A DNA stretch of 64,000 nucleotides, taken from Candidatus Eiseniibacteriota bacterium. GTDB lineage: Bacteria; Eisenbacteria; RBG-16-71-46. A program made the position numbers and the translations under genes. Location of the stretch: NCBI GenBank assembly GCA_041483195.1, contig JBGPFC010000004.1, positions 1 to 64,000 of the forward strand, in the 5' to 3' direction. The notes below the pieces were generated by a model, which saw only the letters and a list, made by a program, of their open reading frames with translations, ran no database searches and was not told the origin of the DNA. This document shows, piece by piece, positions 35,398 to 40,698 of the stretch (within the stretch, counting starts at the first letter, position 1; each line of letters opens with the position of its first letter).

Positions 35398-36039
35398 TCA
35401 CTCTGGTTTCTTCGCCCCACGGGCAGCTGAATCGCGCACTCCCGGCGCAAGACCGCGCACAAGTCCACGAGCGCTGTCAGGACTTGAGCGGAGAACCGCC
35501 GCCGTCTCCAATGAGGGCGCTTGCCGTGGGATCACCGCTGTGTCCATCGCACCGACAAAGTCGCGCTCGATCGTAGGAGCAAGCCGCGGGACCGCGTAGT
35601 TGGCGCCCATGCTCGCGAGCACACCGAGGCCAAACACCACAGCGCCCCGAAGAAACTGACGCCACCGTGTCTTGTGTCGGACAAAGAATGGCATGGACCT
35701 GACTACCCACTCCCCCAGGGCAAATCCCAAGAGCACGCTTACAAACCCGAGCATCCAGGTGCCCGAGGCACGATAGGCCACAAGCATCCAGTAGAAGCTC
35801 AGGGTCGCCATCGTCGAAGCGAAGACCCATTTGAACGCCAGCAGCTTCGCACTATCCCGTCCTGGTGGCGGAAACGTCTCGAATGTCTCCTGCATGAGTA
35901 AGAGCGCCAGCAGGATGAAACAGCTCTCGAGCCACGCCGCTGACTTTCCCCGCCCGAGGCCCCGACTGAAGACCGCGGCTGCAATCGTGAAACTCGTCAC
36001 CGTGACAAGGGCCGAGTTGTTCCTGACCCACTCCCGCAA
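35398..36039 (-). CDS. Hypothetical multi-pass membrane protein downstream of the RT
   Basis: About five hydrophobic helices; lower GC; no recognised family. Confidence 0.55.
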   Translation of the reverse strand: MREWVRNNSALVTVTSFTIAAAVFSRGLGRGKSAAWLESCFILLALLLMQETFETFPPPGRDSAKLLAFKWVFASTMATLSFYWMLVAYRASGTWMLGFVSVLLGFALGEWVVRSMPFFVRHKTRWRQFLRGAVVFGLGVLASMGANYAVPRLAPTIERDFVGAMDTAVIPRQAPSLETAAVLRSSPDSARGLVRGLAPGVRDSAARGAKKPE

Positions 36040-36317: not shown

Positions 36318-37685
36318 CTAGAGTTCGCGCCGCAGCCGCTCCTCCGCGGCGCGGATTTCTCGGTTCAAACGCACCCAGAGCGCGCCGACCTGCTTCCGCA
36401 ACGGCATGCTTTCCGCCGCCAAGGCTGCGTCGCGTCCGTAGTGGATGAAGTTCCGATTCCGGGCGCGCTTCGGGTCTTGCGGTCCAAAAGTTCTGGCACT
36501 TCGACCCATGAACGAGAACTTCCGATACAACTTCCGCCGAAAGATCCTATCAATACGATTCCGCCGAGCCGCTGACTCTGCCGACCGAACACCATGCACC
36601 ATCTTCGCGATGAATCCCGCGACTGTTGCTTGCCTCAGCCGAATCGCATTCCCATCCCAGGCAAGGCCAAGGTACTGCAGAGAAACCGGCGACTTGTCCA
36701 GCACTTGCCCCTCTGTCGAGAGCCCAAGACCCGTCTGCCGACCAGCCGTTGATCGGAACGCCACCCGAATCGTCTTGGATTCCTGCACCGTAAGCTTAAC
36801 GCCTTCGACTGCCGAGATGACTGTAGCTTCGGCTTGTCTTGCGTATCCCGGCGGGCAGACCACCAGGATATCGTCGCTGTAGCGTCGATAGCTCGCCCCG
36901 AATTCGCCCAACTGTTCATGCAACGACTCGTCCCCTGCCAACATGTAGAGGTTCGCCAACACCGCGCTAATGGGCGAACCCTGAGGGATGCCGGCCGCCG
37001 AGCGGTTGCATTGAACGTGTGGGCGCAGCATGCTCCTGAACTCCTCAGGGCTGCATACGCGGGCGCCGGCGCGGCCTCGCCGGCGCGGAACGTCCCGACC
37101 CAGGAGATTGCGCACGCTTCCCCGATCGATCCAGCTGTACCGGGTGATTGCCCTGTAGATCGCGAAATGGTCTCTTGGGAGCGTTCGCCCCGTCCCCAAT
37201 ATGCCCAGCCAACGCGCTTTCAGAACACCGTGGTCAAGACTACCGAAGAAATCCTTGAGGTCGAGCGCGATCACATCGCAGTCGCCCGCATGTGCAATCT
37301 CTCGAAATGCGGCAACTGCAAAATCTACGTTGTTCCTCGGTGGACTCAGTTGACGATACGCAAGAACCGAAGCGCCAAAAGGACGCCGATAGTGCTGATC
37401 GAGCATCGTGGTGAGGTCAGAGGCGTACTTCGAGTAAATGTGGCTATCCATGTGGGCCGCAGAGCAGAGCTCACGCTGCTTGGGCTGACCCCGATGGCGC
37501 TTTTTCGTGTCAGGGTCCCGGACATAGCGTGGGGTAGTCTTCGTGAAGCGAAGAAATGGCCAGAACGCGTGTCTGGCGACACATTCGGGATCGACGCAAT
37601 AGGCGATGGCGCGGTCCGGGGCGACCGGCCGGTCGAAATGCGCGTATCCGCGCTGGCGGAACAACGGATGTCTCTCGGCGCTCAC
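36318..37685 (-). CDS. Antiviral reverse transcriptase, DRT2/UG2-like
   Basis: RGYAHFD, HAFWPFL, AHMDSHIY, VLAYR, NVDFA, ALDLKDFFGSLDH, LPRDHFAIYRAIT, GIPQGSPISAVLANLYM, YRRYSDD and QYLG. GTG 37685 is preferred because ATG 37727 lies in an ncRNA hairpin loop. Confidence 0.85.
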   Translation of the reverse strand: MSAERHPLFRQRGYAHFDRPVAPDRAIAYCVDPECVARHAFWPFLRFTKTTPRYVRDPDTKKRHRGQPKQRELCSAAHMDSHIYSKYASDLTTMLDQHYRRPFGASVLAYRQLSPPRNNVDFAVAAFREIAHAGDCDVIALDLKDFFGSLDHGVLKARWLGILGTGRTLPRDHFAIYRAITRYSWIDRGSVRNLLGRDVPRRRGRAGARVCSPEEFRSMLRPHVQCNRSAAGIPQGSPISAVLANLYMLAGDESLHEQLGEFGASYRRYSDDILVVCPPGYARQAEATVISAVEGVKLTVQESKTIRVAFRSTAGRQTGLGLSTEGQVLDKSPVSLQYLGLAWDGNAIRLRQATVAGFIAKMVHGVRSAESAARRNRIDRIFRRKLYRKFSFMGRSARTFGPQDPKRARNRNFIHYGRDAALAAESMPLRKQVGALWVRLNREIRAAEERLRREL

Positions 37686-37699
37686 GGATGATTTCCGAT

Positions 37700-37977
37700 G
37701 TAGCGGTGGAGGGCGGATCGACGGCATCCGCAGACGCCCTCCACCTCAAAGTTACCGAAGCACCGTGACGAAGCACTTCGAGTATGTCCACGCCCGTCGT
37801 CCTAGGACAATCGAAAGGAGCGTATGATCGTGATGCTGATCCTGCTCGTCGCGCTGATCGTCTCACCGTGGCCCGACTTCGGGCGGCAGGTGGCCGGCTG
37901 GGCCGGGTCCGCGTTGGTTGCGGCACTCACAGGCGAGTTGCAGCACACCCCTCCGCTTGAGCATCAACCCCAAGCGC
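37700..37977 (-). ncRNA. Predicted DRT2-type template/scaffold ncRNA (about 280 nt)
   Basis: Hairpins at 37954-37959/37971-37976, 37916-37949 and 37785-37789/37805-37809; a multibranch with a cUUCGg loop near 37745-37782; an 11-bp stem at 37705-37715/37735-37745; lies directly 5' of the RT. Ends approximate. Confidence 0.7.
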
Positions 37978-37985
37978 GCAGGTAG
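37824..37985 (+). other. Antisense neo-like ORF (genomic, permuted form; 53 aa)
   Basis: SD AAAGGAG at 37814-37820 and GC3-rich codons encoding MIVMLILLVALIVSPWPDFGRQVAGWAGSALVAALTGELQH... Confidence 0.6.
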
Positions 37986-38013
37986 AGTAAGTCCCGCGTT
38001 GGGCGCCGGTCAA
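37984..38013 (-). promoter_or_regulatory. Predicted sigma70 promoter for the ncRNA-RT transcript
   Basis: TTGACC-N18-TACTCT on the minus strand, just upstream of the first hairpin. Confidence 0.55.
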
Positions 38014-38118
38014 GCACCTGATCAGCTGTTGGAGGCCAGGGACCCGAGCCGGGATTCCCTAGGCTCCATTCCTTAAGAGGGGACACCCCACGAGCTTGGG
38101 CACGTTAGAGCTACCGGT

Positions 38119-40317
38119 TCACTCAGCAAGGATCTCGTCCGCGAGATCGTCGAGGCCCGCGCGTGCGACAGGACCAACTTTCGTCTTCGCTCGGTTAATG
38201 TGATCCCGCACCCGGCGCCTGATCACGCGCTCCGGGAGATCCCGAATCCCCTCACGCACTGCCTCAGCCTCGTCCAGAATTTCCGGCGTCATGTAACGCA
38301 CAATACCAGCATCCATAATAAGGGGCAGGCGCTCTTCTGTGGCTTTTGTGACCCGTCGCCTAACTGGGCCAAACGCCAAGTAGTTCACGAGAAAGTCTGC
38401 GCTCAGAACCGGCGAGTCAGGCGCCGTCCCTTTCATGAGCGATCCGAGGCGCGGTCTGAGATCAAACGCGCGCCGATCGATAGTCAGCCACCACGCATCA
38501 TATCCGAATGGGGATGCCTTCTGCATCGACCGCAACTGTGTGATCCCACAATAGCATTCTACGTCGTGCTCCACCAAATGCGTGATAGCCATCTCATCAA
38601 TCAACATGTCCTTCGGTCTCCGACGCGCCTCATGAGCCTCATACCAGACCTGCTGCAGGGCGTTTCTTAGGTCCGCACCTGCTCTATCCCGCTCCTCGTG
38701 CAAGTCGCGACGCTGCACCCCAAACTCATCTTCGAGATAGCTCGCGATATCGTTCTCCGGCTGTTCGTCCCCACGAAAGTTTTCCAGCCAGCCCGCAAAC
38801 TCTCCCCGCGTGCGACCGCTGGCTGCGAAGCGGTCGAGCAAGTAGGGTACTCTTCCAATCCACTGCCCAGCCTTCATTCGTGCGCACGCCACAGCACGGT
38901 TCATGTGCCGCTCGATTTCTTCGATTACGCCGGCGGTCACGTAAAGCTCGATACCTGCCTCGCGCGCCGCTCGCATCATTCTCGTAAACCGTCCGCCTCC
39001 TTCTTCGTCAAGAGACTCTGCCAAGAGCGGCAACGCTATTGTCGTGTCGAGCCAGAGCCTTCCGCCAGAAAACATCTTCCCAACCGCCGCTTCGACATCT
39101 GGCGTTTGTCGCAAGAACGCGAGGAGTGTATGCGCATCGATCAGCGTGCGCAGATGCCCCCGAATCGCCGGGTCATCGCTAAGAACCACCTCGCTGACAC
39201 CACCCTCAAGTGCCGCCATCCAGTCCACGCCGTCGCGCTTTGGTAATGCGTTTGCCGCCAAGTCAGCCAGTGCTGCTGTCTTGAGATCGTCGCTTGGGGG
39301 CATCGTCGGCCCGCCGCTCTGCACGGCCAAGGCAAACGCCTGACTGCGCTGGAAGAGGACAGCTTCTGACGTTCTCCTCATAGCGGCAGCGAGGAGTCGG
39401 CTGTCCTCAGGTGCAGCAGTGCTGTCCTGCAAGGTCGCGTCAGCAAGATTCTGTATCGCATCCTGGAGCCTAGCTTCAGCAAGTGCCGCTGCAATCTTGA
39501 ATTCGGCCAAGCGCAAGAGCTCCTCATGACTCAGGCAGAACTCGTCGTCCTTCGGGTAATGCCTTATGGCCTTTTTTGCCAAGCGCCTCAGAGCTGACTC
39601 AACGTAGGGCGCAATATCCTTCGCGTCGTGCCCCGGGAGCACGGCGCACACTCGCTCCCGCACCGCAGCACGGCTAAGCCGGTGGTTCGGGTCGGTGTGC
39701 GCCAACGCCGAGCGCACAAGTGCCTCAAAGGCCAGCTTTGTTAGGCCCTTCTCTCTGATGTCGTCCTGCCACTGGAGGCCGAGGTAGGTGAGTGCCGCTA
39801 CGGCCTCGGTGCCCGTGAGATCAGTTGCCCCTCTCGGACGGAGACCGTAATCGACGAGCAGTGGCTCGACTATCACCCGAGCCAGTTCATCTGCCGCGGC
39901 CTCCCGGGCATGATCTGTGTTGACGCGCTCGATGAACCAGCGCAGATCGCGAACATCCAGTCCTAGCGAGAACTCCTTGCGAAGCCTGCGCTTCAATTCA
40001 TCGGCAGCTGCACCTATGTTCTGGTTGCACATGTAAACTAGCGCGATCGCTTGTGGATGCGTCTTCTTCAGACGCTGCGCTGTCTTTACAATCTTGTTCT
40101 CCCAATTCGCGGCGACCGAGTACTGTACGGCGACCTGCGGCTCGTGTTCAGGGGAGAATAGCTCGCTGTCACGACCTCCATCGCCGCTAGCCGCTGCCGT
40201 CGTGCGAAGTTCGGAGAATTCCGCGGCCAAGAATACGGACGACAAGTGCTCAAAACGCTCCCAATCAGAGGGCTGAAGCCTCTCCAACGCCAGCTGAAAG
40301 CGCCCGCTGTTCATCAT
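38119..40317 (-). CDS. Large hypothetical protein: N-terminal PD-(D/E)xK REase-like domain plus C-terminal PIN-like domain
   Basis: WERFE...GDGGRD...QYS; LWLDTTIAL...YVTAGVIEEI...EHDVE; SD GGAGG. Confidence 0.6.
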   Translation of the reverse strand: MMNSGRFQLALERLQPSDWERFEHLSSVFLAAEFSELRTTAAASGDGGRDSELFSPEHEPQVAVQYSVAANWENKIVKTAQRLKKTHPQAIALVYMCNQNIGAAADELKRRLRKEFSLGLDVRDLRWFIERVNTDHAREAAADELARVIVEPLLVDYGLRPRGATDLTGTEAVAALTYLGLQWQDDIREKGLTKLAFEALVRSALAHTDPNHRLSRAAVRERVCAVLPGHDAKDIAPYVESALRRLAKKAIRHYPKDDEFCLSHEELLRLAEFKIAAALAEARLQDAIQNLADATLQDSTAAPEDSRLLAAAMRRTSEAVLFQRSQAFALAVQSGGPTMPPSDDLKTAALADLAANALPKRDGVDWMAALEGGVSEVVLSDDPAIRGHLRTLIDAHTLLAFLRQTPDVEAAVGKMFSGGRLWLDTTIALPLLAESLDEEGGGRFTRMMRAAREAGIELYVTAGVIEEIERHMNRAVACARMKAGQWIGRVPYLLDRFAASGRTRGEFAGWLENFRGDEQPENDIASYLEDEFGVQRRDLHEERDRAGADLRNALQQVWYEAHEARRRPKDMLIDEMAITHLVEHDVECYCGITQLRSMQKASPFGYDAWWLTIDRRAFDLRPRLGSLMKGTAPDSPVLSADFLVNYLAFGPVRRRVTKATEERLPLIMDAGIVRYMTPEILDEAEAVREGIRDLPERVIRRRVRDHINRAKTKVGPVARAGLDDLADEILAE

Positions 40318-40698
40318 GTCGTCCCTCCAATCACAGCTAGATCCTGCGCCCTCGGCCACTCCATAGATATTCGAGGACGTAGTGGGGATCCTTGTCATGA
40401 GTCATTGGCCCTACCGTCGCGAGATGGTTTCGCCCCTCGCCTACGAAGAGTTCCGCGCGACGCAGATCGCGCTGCGATGGCATCCGCGCCCCGAATGATT
40501 CGACAGCGGTCCCAGTCTTCACCATAGCAAAGCGCGGGAGAGGTTCCCAGTCCGTCGGGCCTTCGCCTTCGAAACTTCGCGATGAACCAACTGATCGCTG
40601 CTCGGAGTTGTGTAGGTCGTGCTCGTCCGCGATTGCAAGACTGTCGGATTCAAGCCTTGTCTCAAGGCTGCCGCGTACGACTTCCATCTTCTACCCCT

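Follow-up and report, generated by a model that had tools for sequence, protein, structure and literature searches.

A candidate neo-type gene antisense to the predicted RNA of a divergent DRT2 reverse transcriptase from an uncultured sediment bacterium

The reverse transcriptase gene and its predicted RNA

The window analysed here is a 64,000-nt stretch of DNA from Candidatus Eiseniibacteriota bacterium, an uncultured sediment bacterium (GCA_041483195.1, contig JBGPFC010000004.1, positions 1-64,000 of the forward strand). The locus under study comprises a DRT2 reverse transcriptase (RT) gene, a non-coding RNA (ncRNA) predicted from its upstream region, where a 391-nt gap (37728-38118) precedes the gene, and a small hydrophobic open reading frame (ORF) that lies in this gap on the opposite strand. 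A preliminary description of this DNA had proposed that the ncRNA hides a permuted gene, from which a 138-nt template jump would build both a promoter and an endless repeat of 46 amino acids (aa). The RT, its RNA and the small ORF are laid out as follows.

36318-37727, minus strand: DRT2 RT gene, 469 aa as listed, matching PADLOC Drt2 and Pfam RVT_1
37690-37976, minus strand: predicted DRT2 ncRNA of ~285 nt, with a 5' handle, the template and a 3' scaffold that reaches the RT start
37984-38013, minus strand: candidate promoter of the ncRNA and RT (TTGACC at 38013-38008, 18-nt spacer, TACTCT at 37989-37984)
37954-37976, minus strand: predicted 5' handle hairpin of 8 pairs, in the minimum free energy and centroid structures
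37705-37745, minus strand: predicted GC-rich 3' scaffold hairpin of 11 bp, with the listed RT ATG (37727) in its loop
37824-37985, plus strand: small hydrophobic ORF from the ORF list, 53 aa in the genome, with coding signal to about 37946
37814-37820, plus strand: Shine-Dalgarno (SD) sequence AAAGGAG; the ATG at 37824 follows after 3 nt

The RT matched PADLOC Drt2 with E-values of 2.6e-121 (over residues 18-462) and 1.2e-108, versus 3.9e-19 for the next family, and its catalytic YSDD motif (YxDD) is intact and invariant across an alignment of 16 relatives. By these sequence matches it clearly belongs to the DRT2 (UG2) defence reverse transcriptases, as had been inferred earlier. In a MAFFT alignment the start codons of relatives fall opposite an in-frame GTG at 37685, which is probably the true start in place of the listed ATG at 37727; the predicted ncRNA length of ~285 nt assumes this GTG start. 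The gene is foreign to its host, with a GC content at third codon positions (GC3) of 0.68 versus 0.76-0.96 in 33 long host ORFs, and with no RT match in 60 kin genomes (E <= 1e-20) or elsewhere in the phylum (205 further genomes, E <= 1e-40). Its closest relatives (P0003-P0007, 52-57% identical) are known as proteins only. In the RT tree it falls within a 30-row clade (value of 99 in the Shimodaira-Hasegawa-like approximate likelihood ratio test, SH-aLRT) that contains database proteins and, with L021 and L029, only two DNA loci; weakly joined to this clade, as its sister, is the ACG-flank clade.

The candidate ncRNA promoter, TTGACC-18-TACTCT, scored 9.75 bits and was the sole promoter of at least 9.3 bits on the ncRNA strand in this region of the window, the next best reaching 3.8. 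It matches the consensus at 8 of 12 positions, under the threshold of the scan tool, and aligns (MAFFT) with a CTTGA motif of the sister clade. The RNA is predicted to start near 37976, at the edge of the handle hairpin, one pair of which is a G-U pair possible in the minus-strand RNA only. At the other end, the hairpin at 37705-37745 is probably part of the ncRNA scaffold, because the RT start aligns to the GTG at 37685; scaffold motifs of the window ncRNA are common to L021 and L029.

The family also supplied a ruler for the template. Among 45 DRT2 loci, 22 have an ncRNA-strand promoter of at least 9.3 bits, and in 18 of those 22 the RNA is predicted to begin 21-33 nt ahead of the template's 5' end (median 27). 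Given an RNA start near 37976, the template of the window would therefore be expected to begin near 37949. A unit ending at 37947 leaves a handle of 29 nt and one ending at 37950 a handle of 26 nt, and the template's 5' end is predicted to lie at about 37947-37950. By eye, GGAGGGG (37948-37954) could pair in the minus-strand RNA with CUCCUUU, the complement of the SD (37814-37820), through 7 pairs of which 3 are G-U. A basal stem joining the template ends was set aside as speculation, being absent from the predicted fold and not general in the relatives; a GGAGG/CCUCC counterpart is visible in L021, and not in L029 or the sister clade.

A small hydrophobic reading frame on the opposite strand

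Direct reading of the plus strand places TAG at 37803-37805, ACA at 37807-37809, AAAGGAG at 37814-37820, TATGAT at 37823-37828 with an ATG at 37824, TTGCAG at 37938-37943, a second ACA at 37945-37947 and a TAG at 37983-37985. Every motif and coordinate in the preliminary description was thus correct. The plus-strand frame is open over 37806-37982 only.

GC content by codon position in this ORF is 0.68/0.44/0.90 for 37824-37946 (41 codons), and GC3 is 0.58 in the tail at 37947-37982. Codon log-odds relative to host genes are +0.28 per codon in the core and -0.68 in the tail; the core totals +11.7, versus a mean of +15.9 per 41 codons for pieces of host genes in their true frame. Residues 1-19 have a mean Kyte-Doolittle hydropathy of 2.17 and resemble a transmembrane segment, and residues 22-39 are mildly hydrophobic, which bears out the hydrophobic, membrane-type product that had been proposed.

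A HMMER search of 1.84 billion representatives retrieved a homologue, P0125 (88 aa), with 55% identity across residues 3-46 (E 2.5e-7). P0125 and the ORF share their start and align without gaps over 44 residues up to PPL; the position of the stop is not conserved (53 aa in the window versus 88 aa in P0125). P0125 is encoded on a contig of 3353 nt, and the contig of P0004, an RT 56% identical to that of the window, also measures 3353 nt, so that P0125 appears to lie beside this RT. A word-based protein search with the small ORF retrieved the ORF itself only, and a search with the two-row alignment retrieved P0125 and itself only. Three other proteins from the HMMER pass (P0123, P0124 and P0126) were rejected on reading as unrelated repeat proteins. 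The ORF motif SPWPDFGRQVAGW resembles the PWPxYGxQxGSW repeat of two of these, the long FG-GAP-like proteins P0124 and P0126 (E 6e-10 and 7e-6), and we judge this resemblance of a short motif to be due to chance. An atlas search returned a best score of 0.78 and no lead.

As previously described, the ORF lies antisense in the upstream RNA of the RT, and it occupies the place and orientation that the neo template has in DRT2 relatives. These data support the idea that it is a real, conserved gene and the template gene of a neo-type system, whichever junction is used; we regard this as probable.

Candidate repeat junctions and their counterparts in the DRT2 family

The two plus-strand ACA triplets (37807-37809 and 37945-37947) lie 138 nt apart, as claimed, and joining 37947 to 37810 does give a 17-nt spacer (4 + 13 nt) between TTGCAG and TATGAT together with a stop-free frame. 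In the genome the small gene would be silent, since there the -35 is positioned downstream of the -10; consistent with this, a scan (at least 9 of 12 consensus positions, at least 4 per hexamer) found 0 sites on either strand of the linear sequence at 37500-38400. The element order that had been pointed out, with the SD inside the spacer and the -10 over the start codon, recurs in two relatives with strong promoters and endless frames (L036 and L107). The suggestion that the jump signal differs from the ACA of Klebsiella also held, as no ncRNA-sense ACA pair occurs at 90-185 nt in 37728-38118. Two claims stood in part. The spacing of the rebuilt promoter works, but its hexamers match the consensus at 8 of 12 positions and its -35 is poor; and the geometry of the 138-nt ACA junction with its endless frame holds, but units of 155, 156, 157 and 117 nt also fit. 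The candidate units and their elements are listed here.

37810-37947, plus strand: 138-nt unit, junction 37947|37810, flanked by ACA at 37807-37809 and 37945-37947
37938-37943, plus strand: -35-like TTGCAG, used by the 138-nt and 155-nt units and aligned (MAFFT) opposite the -35 of relatives
37823-37828, plus strand: -10-like TATGAT over the start codon, used by the 138-nt unit; layout as in L107, with a near-equivalent in L036
37796-37950, plus strand: 155-nt unit, flanked by CACGCCC at 37789-37795 and CACACCC at 37944-37950
37806-37811, plus strand: GACAAT, candidate -10 of the 155-nt unit and positional homologue of the -10 in L021 and L029
37821-37937, plus strand: 117-nt unit at a GAG repeat; TTGCGG-16-TATGAT, 8.3 bits, endless ORF
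156-nt unit, plus strand, at a GCG repeat: TTGAGC-16-TATGAT, 10.8 bits, endless ORF, SD left out of the unit
157-nt unit, plus strand, at an AAG or CAA repeat: TTGAGC-17-TATGAT, 11.8 bits, ORF of ~97 aa with an Arg-rich out-of-frame tail

In a chance test a configuration counted if its junction promoter scored at least 9.3 bits over a spacer of 16-18 nt, the junction carried a direct repeat of 3 nt, the unit was stop-free with a length that is a multiple of three, and an in-frame start was preceded by an SD. Dinucleotide shuffles of 37728-38118 showed the full configuration in 11 of 2000 cases, and other 391-nt segments of the window in 5 of 830; with the SD and start condition dropped, 98 of 2000 and 42 of 830 did so, respectively. 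No such configuration was present on the opposite strand, and the bacterium's own genome holds no second copy of the template or of a junction. All 23 sequencing runs listed as containing the stretch are of sediment DNA, with no RNA run among them. Four of these, as assembled contigs at a depth of 2-7, had the identical sequence with no joints or variants, which speaks neither for nor against the junction.

The family survey drew its loci from a scan of genome contigs (14 loci) and of metagenomes (at least 80), all with at most 37% RT identity; viral scans gave 0 and 8 distant loci, the RTs of plasmids are at most 34% identical, and four plasmid drt2 loci fall in other clades than the window RT. 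Of 89 loci with an RT match, 11 were dropped for a late match start or for having less than 330 nt of upstream DNA, leaving 78. A script then searched antisense and upstream of each RT for -35 and -10 hexamers that would come to lie 16-18 nt apart after a jump between direct repeats of 3 nt. The best junction promoter reached at least 13 bits in 46 of the 78 loci (many being a perfect TTGACA-17-TATAAT) and 9.3-13 bits in 26, and none of at least 9.3 bits was found in six. In the 46 strong loci, a -10 and -35 that are out of order in the genome would, after the jump, form a promoter before a small hydrophobic ORF. Each of the 46 carries, as the search itself requires, a direct repeat of 3 nt at its junction. 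Their unit length (L) is 91-162 nt (median 129), and the RT anchor lies 118-243 nt from where the unit starts; in 38 loci L is divisible by three, in seven it is 2 mod 3 and in one 1 mod 3. The flanking triplet is consistent within clades (ACG in 8 of the 46, TGT in 5, AAT in 5, TTG in 4, AAC in 4, and others besides), and the published TGT flank, which reads ACA in the ncRNA sense, occurs in 5 of 46 only, other triplets replacing it elsewhere. The window candidates fall within the family ranges (unit start 135-149 nt from the anchor, L 138-155). The survey reproduces and extends the published DRT2/neo picture, as far as the available parts of the publications set it out.

Two arrangements of the start region emerged from these loci. 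When only multiple-of-three solutions were taken and the four plasmid loci were added, giving an endless-type set of 43 loci, an in-frame start with an SD lay downstream of the -10 in 35, inside or directly after the -10 in two (L036 and L107) and before it in one; no such start was found by pattern in the remaining five. By contrast, L021, L029, L030, L032, L043 and L064 have a best junction with a 17-nt spacer, 13.6-17.1 bits and an L of 2 mod 3, which gives a finite ORF of 36-49 aa with a TGA that overlaps the start of the next repeat (ATGA or GTGA). These are six of the eight strong loci with an L that is not a multiple of three, and they come from four parts of the tree; for some 2-mod-3 loci, spacers of 16 or 18 nt yield endless solutions as well. 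A further locus, L108 (Nitratidesulfovibrio vulgaris DP4 plasmid, drt2), has a perfect TTGACA-17-TATAAT at L = 145 (1 mod 3), with a 99-aa ORF whose stop overlaps a start, and also a solution at L = 144 with a 16-nt spacer.

Both arrangements have counterparts of the window. L107 (Psychrobacter plasmid NC_019274, annotated drt2) and L036 (a metagenome locus) resemble the 138-nt unit in having the SD in the spacer and an endless frame, with the -10 over an in-frame ATG in L107 (TATGCT) and directly before an in-frame ATG in L036; L107 additionally shares the 138-nt unit length and a gene-sense ACA repeat. Unlike the window, however, both have a perfect TTGACA as -35 (13.3 and 15.5 bits, respectively) and RTs in another part of the tree (that of L107 is 29% identical to the window RT), and the junction of L107 falls directly after its -35. 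L021 and L029, the nearest relatives with DNA among the matches listed, carry an antisense ORF of 42-46 aa with SD and start in the same place as the window, a -10 that lies 6 nt before the SD, a -35 inside the 3' part of the ORF, as in the window, and the possibility of a stop-start overlap (ATGA or GTGA), again as in the window. They differ from it in their strong hexamers (15.8 and 14.9 bits) and an extra scaffold hairpin, and their peptides are 22-23% identical to that of the window, which is too weak to map the -35.

Among the junctions, the exact 138-nt unit with its endless 46-aa repeat is a tentative choice. Its promoter, TTGCAG-17-TATGAT, scores 9.3 bits with a better -10 than that of the 155-nt unit, the coding signal ends exactly at the 37947 junction, and the 29-nt handle lies inside the family range of 21-33 nt. 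The 155-nt unit, which would use the same rolling-circle mechanism with a jump at the 6-of-7 direct repeat CACGCCC/CACACCC, seems to us rather unlikely. Because 155 is 2 mod 3, it would yield a discrete hydrophobic peptide of 52 aa per repeat, with a TGA (37825-37827) overlapping the ATG of the next repeat, and its concatemer would therefore be a translationally coupled array and not an endless ORF. It gains from the alignment of GACAAT with the -10 of L021 and L029 (the only DNA loci in the window clade among the matches listed), from a -10 that lies upstream of the SD, the arrangement of most relatives, and from the best junctions of these two loci, where L is 137 and 146, both 2 mod 3, with a 17-nt spacer, and the finite ORFs end in a TGA overlapping the next start; the window likewise has an ATGA at its start, and the overlap pattern recurs in L030, L032, L043 and L064. 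The 7|10 spacer split and the 12 nt from -10 to ATG are within the family range (12 nt also in L043 and L051), the handle is 26 nt, and an in-frame stop lies 7 codons before the start, as in L021. This unit nevertheless has the weakest promoter of the candidates (TTGCAG-17-GACAAT, 6.6 bits, 7 of 12), it was picked post hoc among 19 candidates with three-nt repeats, and endless alternatives exist for L029 (144 and 147 nt), L043 (108 nt) and L032 (105 nt); Klebsiella, moreover, needs translation across several repeats, according to the available part of the published account (PMC11100668). Yet another junction under the same mechanism, of 117 or 126 nt or with TTGAGC (37957-37962) as the -35 (156 or 157 nt), is similarly doubtful. 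The highest scores come from pairing TTGAGC and TATGAT (11.8 bits for L = 157, 10.8 bits for L = 156), the codon phase of TTGAGC (Leu, then an acidic residue) is that of the -35 in L021, L029 and the sister clade, and the similarity to P0125 runs through PPL, perhaps to 37973 with a 3-residue gap. Such units are disfavoured because their ends (37967-37978) fall inside the handle: they run through the 5' hairpin and stop -2 to 9 nt from the predicted RNA start, compared with the 21-33 nt seen in 18 of 22 relatives. In addition, the tail at 37947-37982 has no coding signal, the 156-nt unit omits the SD and the 157-nt unit gives the ~97-aa ORF with its Arg-rich out-of-frame tail, while the 117-nt unit leaves a 39-nt handle and scores 8.3 bits only.

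Two readings dispense with a rebuilt gene altogether. An ordinary gene for a small membrane protein, or one akin to a type I toxin and antisense to the RT leader, could be transcribed directly from the chromosome with no cDNA involved: in the genome the ORF comes complete with strong SD, ATG and stop, it has a conserved counterpart in P0125, and a gene caller reports a 50-aa version (P0122). We consider this very unlikely, in view of the lack of any promoter-like site upstream in the linear sequence, the position of the ORF within a DRT2 RT's RNA, at the very place of the permuted gene in 46 of 78 relatives, the unconserved stop, and a coding signal that ends 36 nt before it. It is also improbable that no functional gene is present and that the frame is a by-product of a GC-rich structured RNA or belongs to a decaying system. 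At 63-68% GC it is not unusual for a frame to stay open over 53-88 codons, the hexamers fall far short of the near-perfect ones seen in relatives, a weakness that decay would explain, and six of 78 relatives are likewise without a junction promoter of at least 9.3 bits; but the GC values by codon position (0.68/0.44/0.90), the start and frame common to P0125 over 44 gap-free residues, the strong SD and the intact RT all speak for a gene.

Several observations weigh against a neo-type gene at this locus, or against its 138-nt form. The rebuilt promoter matches the consensus at 8 of 12 positions (TTGCAG 3 of 6, TATGAT 5 of 6), below the 9-of-12 scan threshold, and the 9.3 bits of the 138-nt junction and 6.6 bits of the 155-nt junction compare with at least 13 bits in 46 of 78 relatives. 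At the 138-nt junction the 4|13 split of the spacer is just outside 5|12-12|6, the range of most of the 46, the microhomology is 3 nt only, and the element order is shared by only two or three of the 43 endless-type loci. P0125 remains similar for at least four residues beyond this junction, and, judged from the protein sequence only, its second residue would, if the start is shared, abolish the last T of the -10. Plus-strand TGT occurs in 37728-38118 only at 37785 and 38027, 242 nt apart. As to the gene itself, 17% of stop-free wrong-frame pieces of host genes reach the codon score of the core, and the similarity between P0125 and the ORF could in part reflect conservation at the RNA level. 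The ncRNA region had no match in an Rfam search, the z-score of its fold is -1.47, not significantly better than shuffles, and, among the matches listed, RT identity to the closest loci that have DNA does not exceed 37%.

Proposed mechanism and comparison with known systems

On balance, the locus is likely to be a DRT2 defence system of the neo type that would work as follows. The RT would bind a ~285-nt minus-strand RNA (from about 37976 down to about 37690) transcribed from upstream of its own gene, copy an internal template (5' end at about 37947-37950), and jump from there to the template's 3' end, generating tandem cDNA repeats. Once double-stranded, each repeat junction would put TTGCAG (37938-37943) ~17 nt upstream of a hexamer resembling a -10. 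Transcription of the plus strand would follow, with the SD and ATG at 37814 and 37824 driving synthesis of a small hydrophobic, membrane-type protein that would arrest the infected cell. The analysis demonstrates the family to which the RT belongs, the location, orientation, coding signal and conservation of the ORF, and the geometry of the elements, whereas cDNA synthesis, the template jump, transcription and toxicity are inferred.

We also raise, with little confidence, a second DRT2 architecture, in which 2-mod-3 repeats encode discrete hydrophobic peptides of ~36-52 aa with a TGA overlapping the next start. Its members would be the window (155 nt, 37796-37950), L021, L029, L030, L032, L043 and L064, and the cDNA concatemer would in that case form an array of a small membrane toxin, studded with promoters and translationally coupled, in place of a never-ending ORF. 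In the literature searched, which did not extend to the supplements or the final version of Tang et al., no paper tied DRT2 to translational coupling or to overlapping stop and start codons. The window offers a testable candidate for a conserved small membrane-type gene hidden antisense in the RNA of an RT. Its junction would show how far the neo rules vary (the ACA signal, a period divisible by three, and the order of promoter and ribosome-binding site), and whether there are DRT2 systems that produce discrete peptides and not an endless protein.

The available parts of the published work on Klebsiella DRT2/neo (Tang et al. 2024, a preprint, PMC11100668; Wilkinson et al. 2024, PMC12039810) show the same overall plan: a single-gene RT, an upstream ncRNA of ~280 nt on the same strand (281 nt in Klebsiella pneumoniae; PMC11100668), and an antisense hydrophobic ORF with an SD and ATG inside the template. 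In both, the genomic -10 lies upstream of the -35 and the jump would give a 17-nt spacer, and the unit length of the window is within the family range. As in neo, the window has an antisense ORF with a ribosome-binding site, a start and a hydrophobic bias inside the template. A spacing of ~17 nt works for several window junctions, with hexamers that match at only 7-8 of 12 positions, and the 138-, 117- and 156-nt units are divisible by three and stop-free, whereas the 155- and 157-nt units are not.

The differences are also clear. The window RT is ~30-37% identical to relatives of the Klebsiella type. As far as those parts of the two papers describe the Klebsiella system, the window lacks the ncRNA-sense ACA pair that the published criterion asks for, its hexamers match at 8 of 12 positions and are not near-perfect, and it has either the SD in the spacer and the ATG in the -10 (138-nt unit) or a unit that is not a multiple of three (155-nt unit). 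The N-terminal segment of its product resembles a transmembrane segment, unlike Klebsiella Neo, for which an alpha-solenoid prediction is reported there. The part of the Tang et al. 2024 preprint at hand (PMC11100668) leaves open what Neo is like in divergent DRT2 clades, and the window belongs to such a divergent clade.

The predicted product can also be set beside other small membrane-active peptides. Small hydrophobic toxins of type I toxin-antitoxin systems, such as Hok or TisB, share with it a length of ~50 aa, a single strongly hydrophobic segment, a coding strand opposite an RNA and membrane damage as the plausible effect. In the window, unlike in Hok and TisB, the RNA on the opposite strand is the template of an RT, and no promoter is visible in the linear DNA.

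Two further ORFs flank the RT, one of 759 aa at 38119-40398 and one of 213 aa at 35398-36039, both on the minus strand. Neither had a match in Pfam, and the 759-aa ORF, the one scanned with PADLOC, had none there. The 759-aa ORF has a GC3 of 0.66, low like that of the RT when set against the host range of 0.76-0.96, which suggests a small foreign island that may hold another defence gene.

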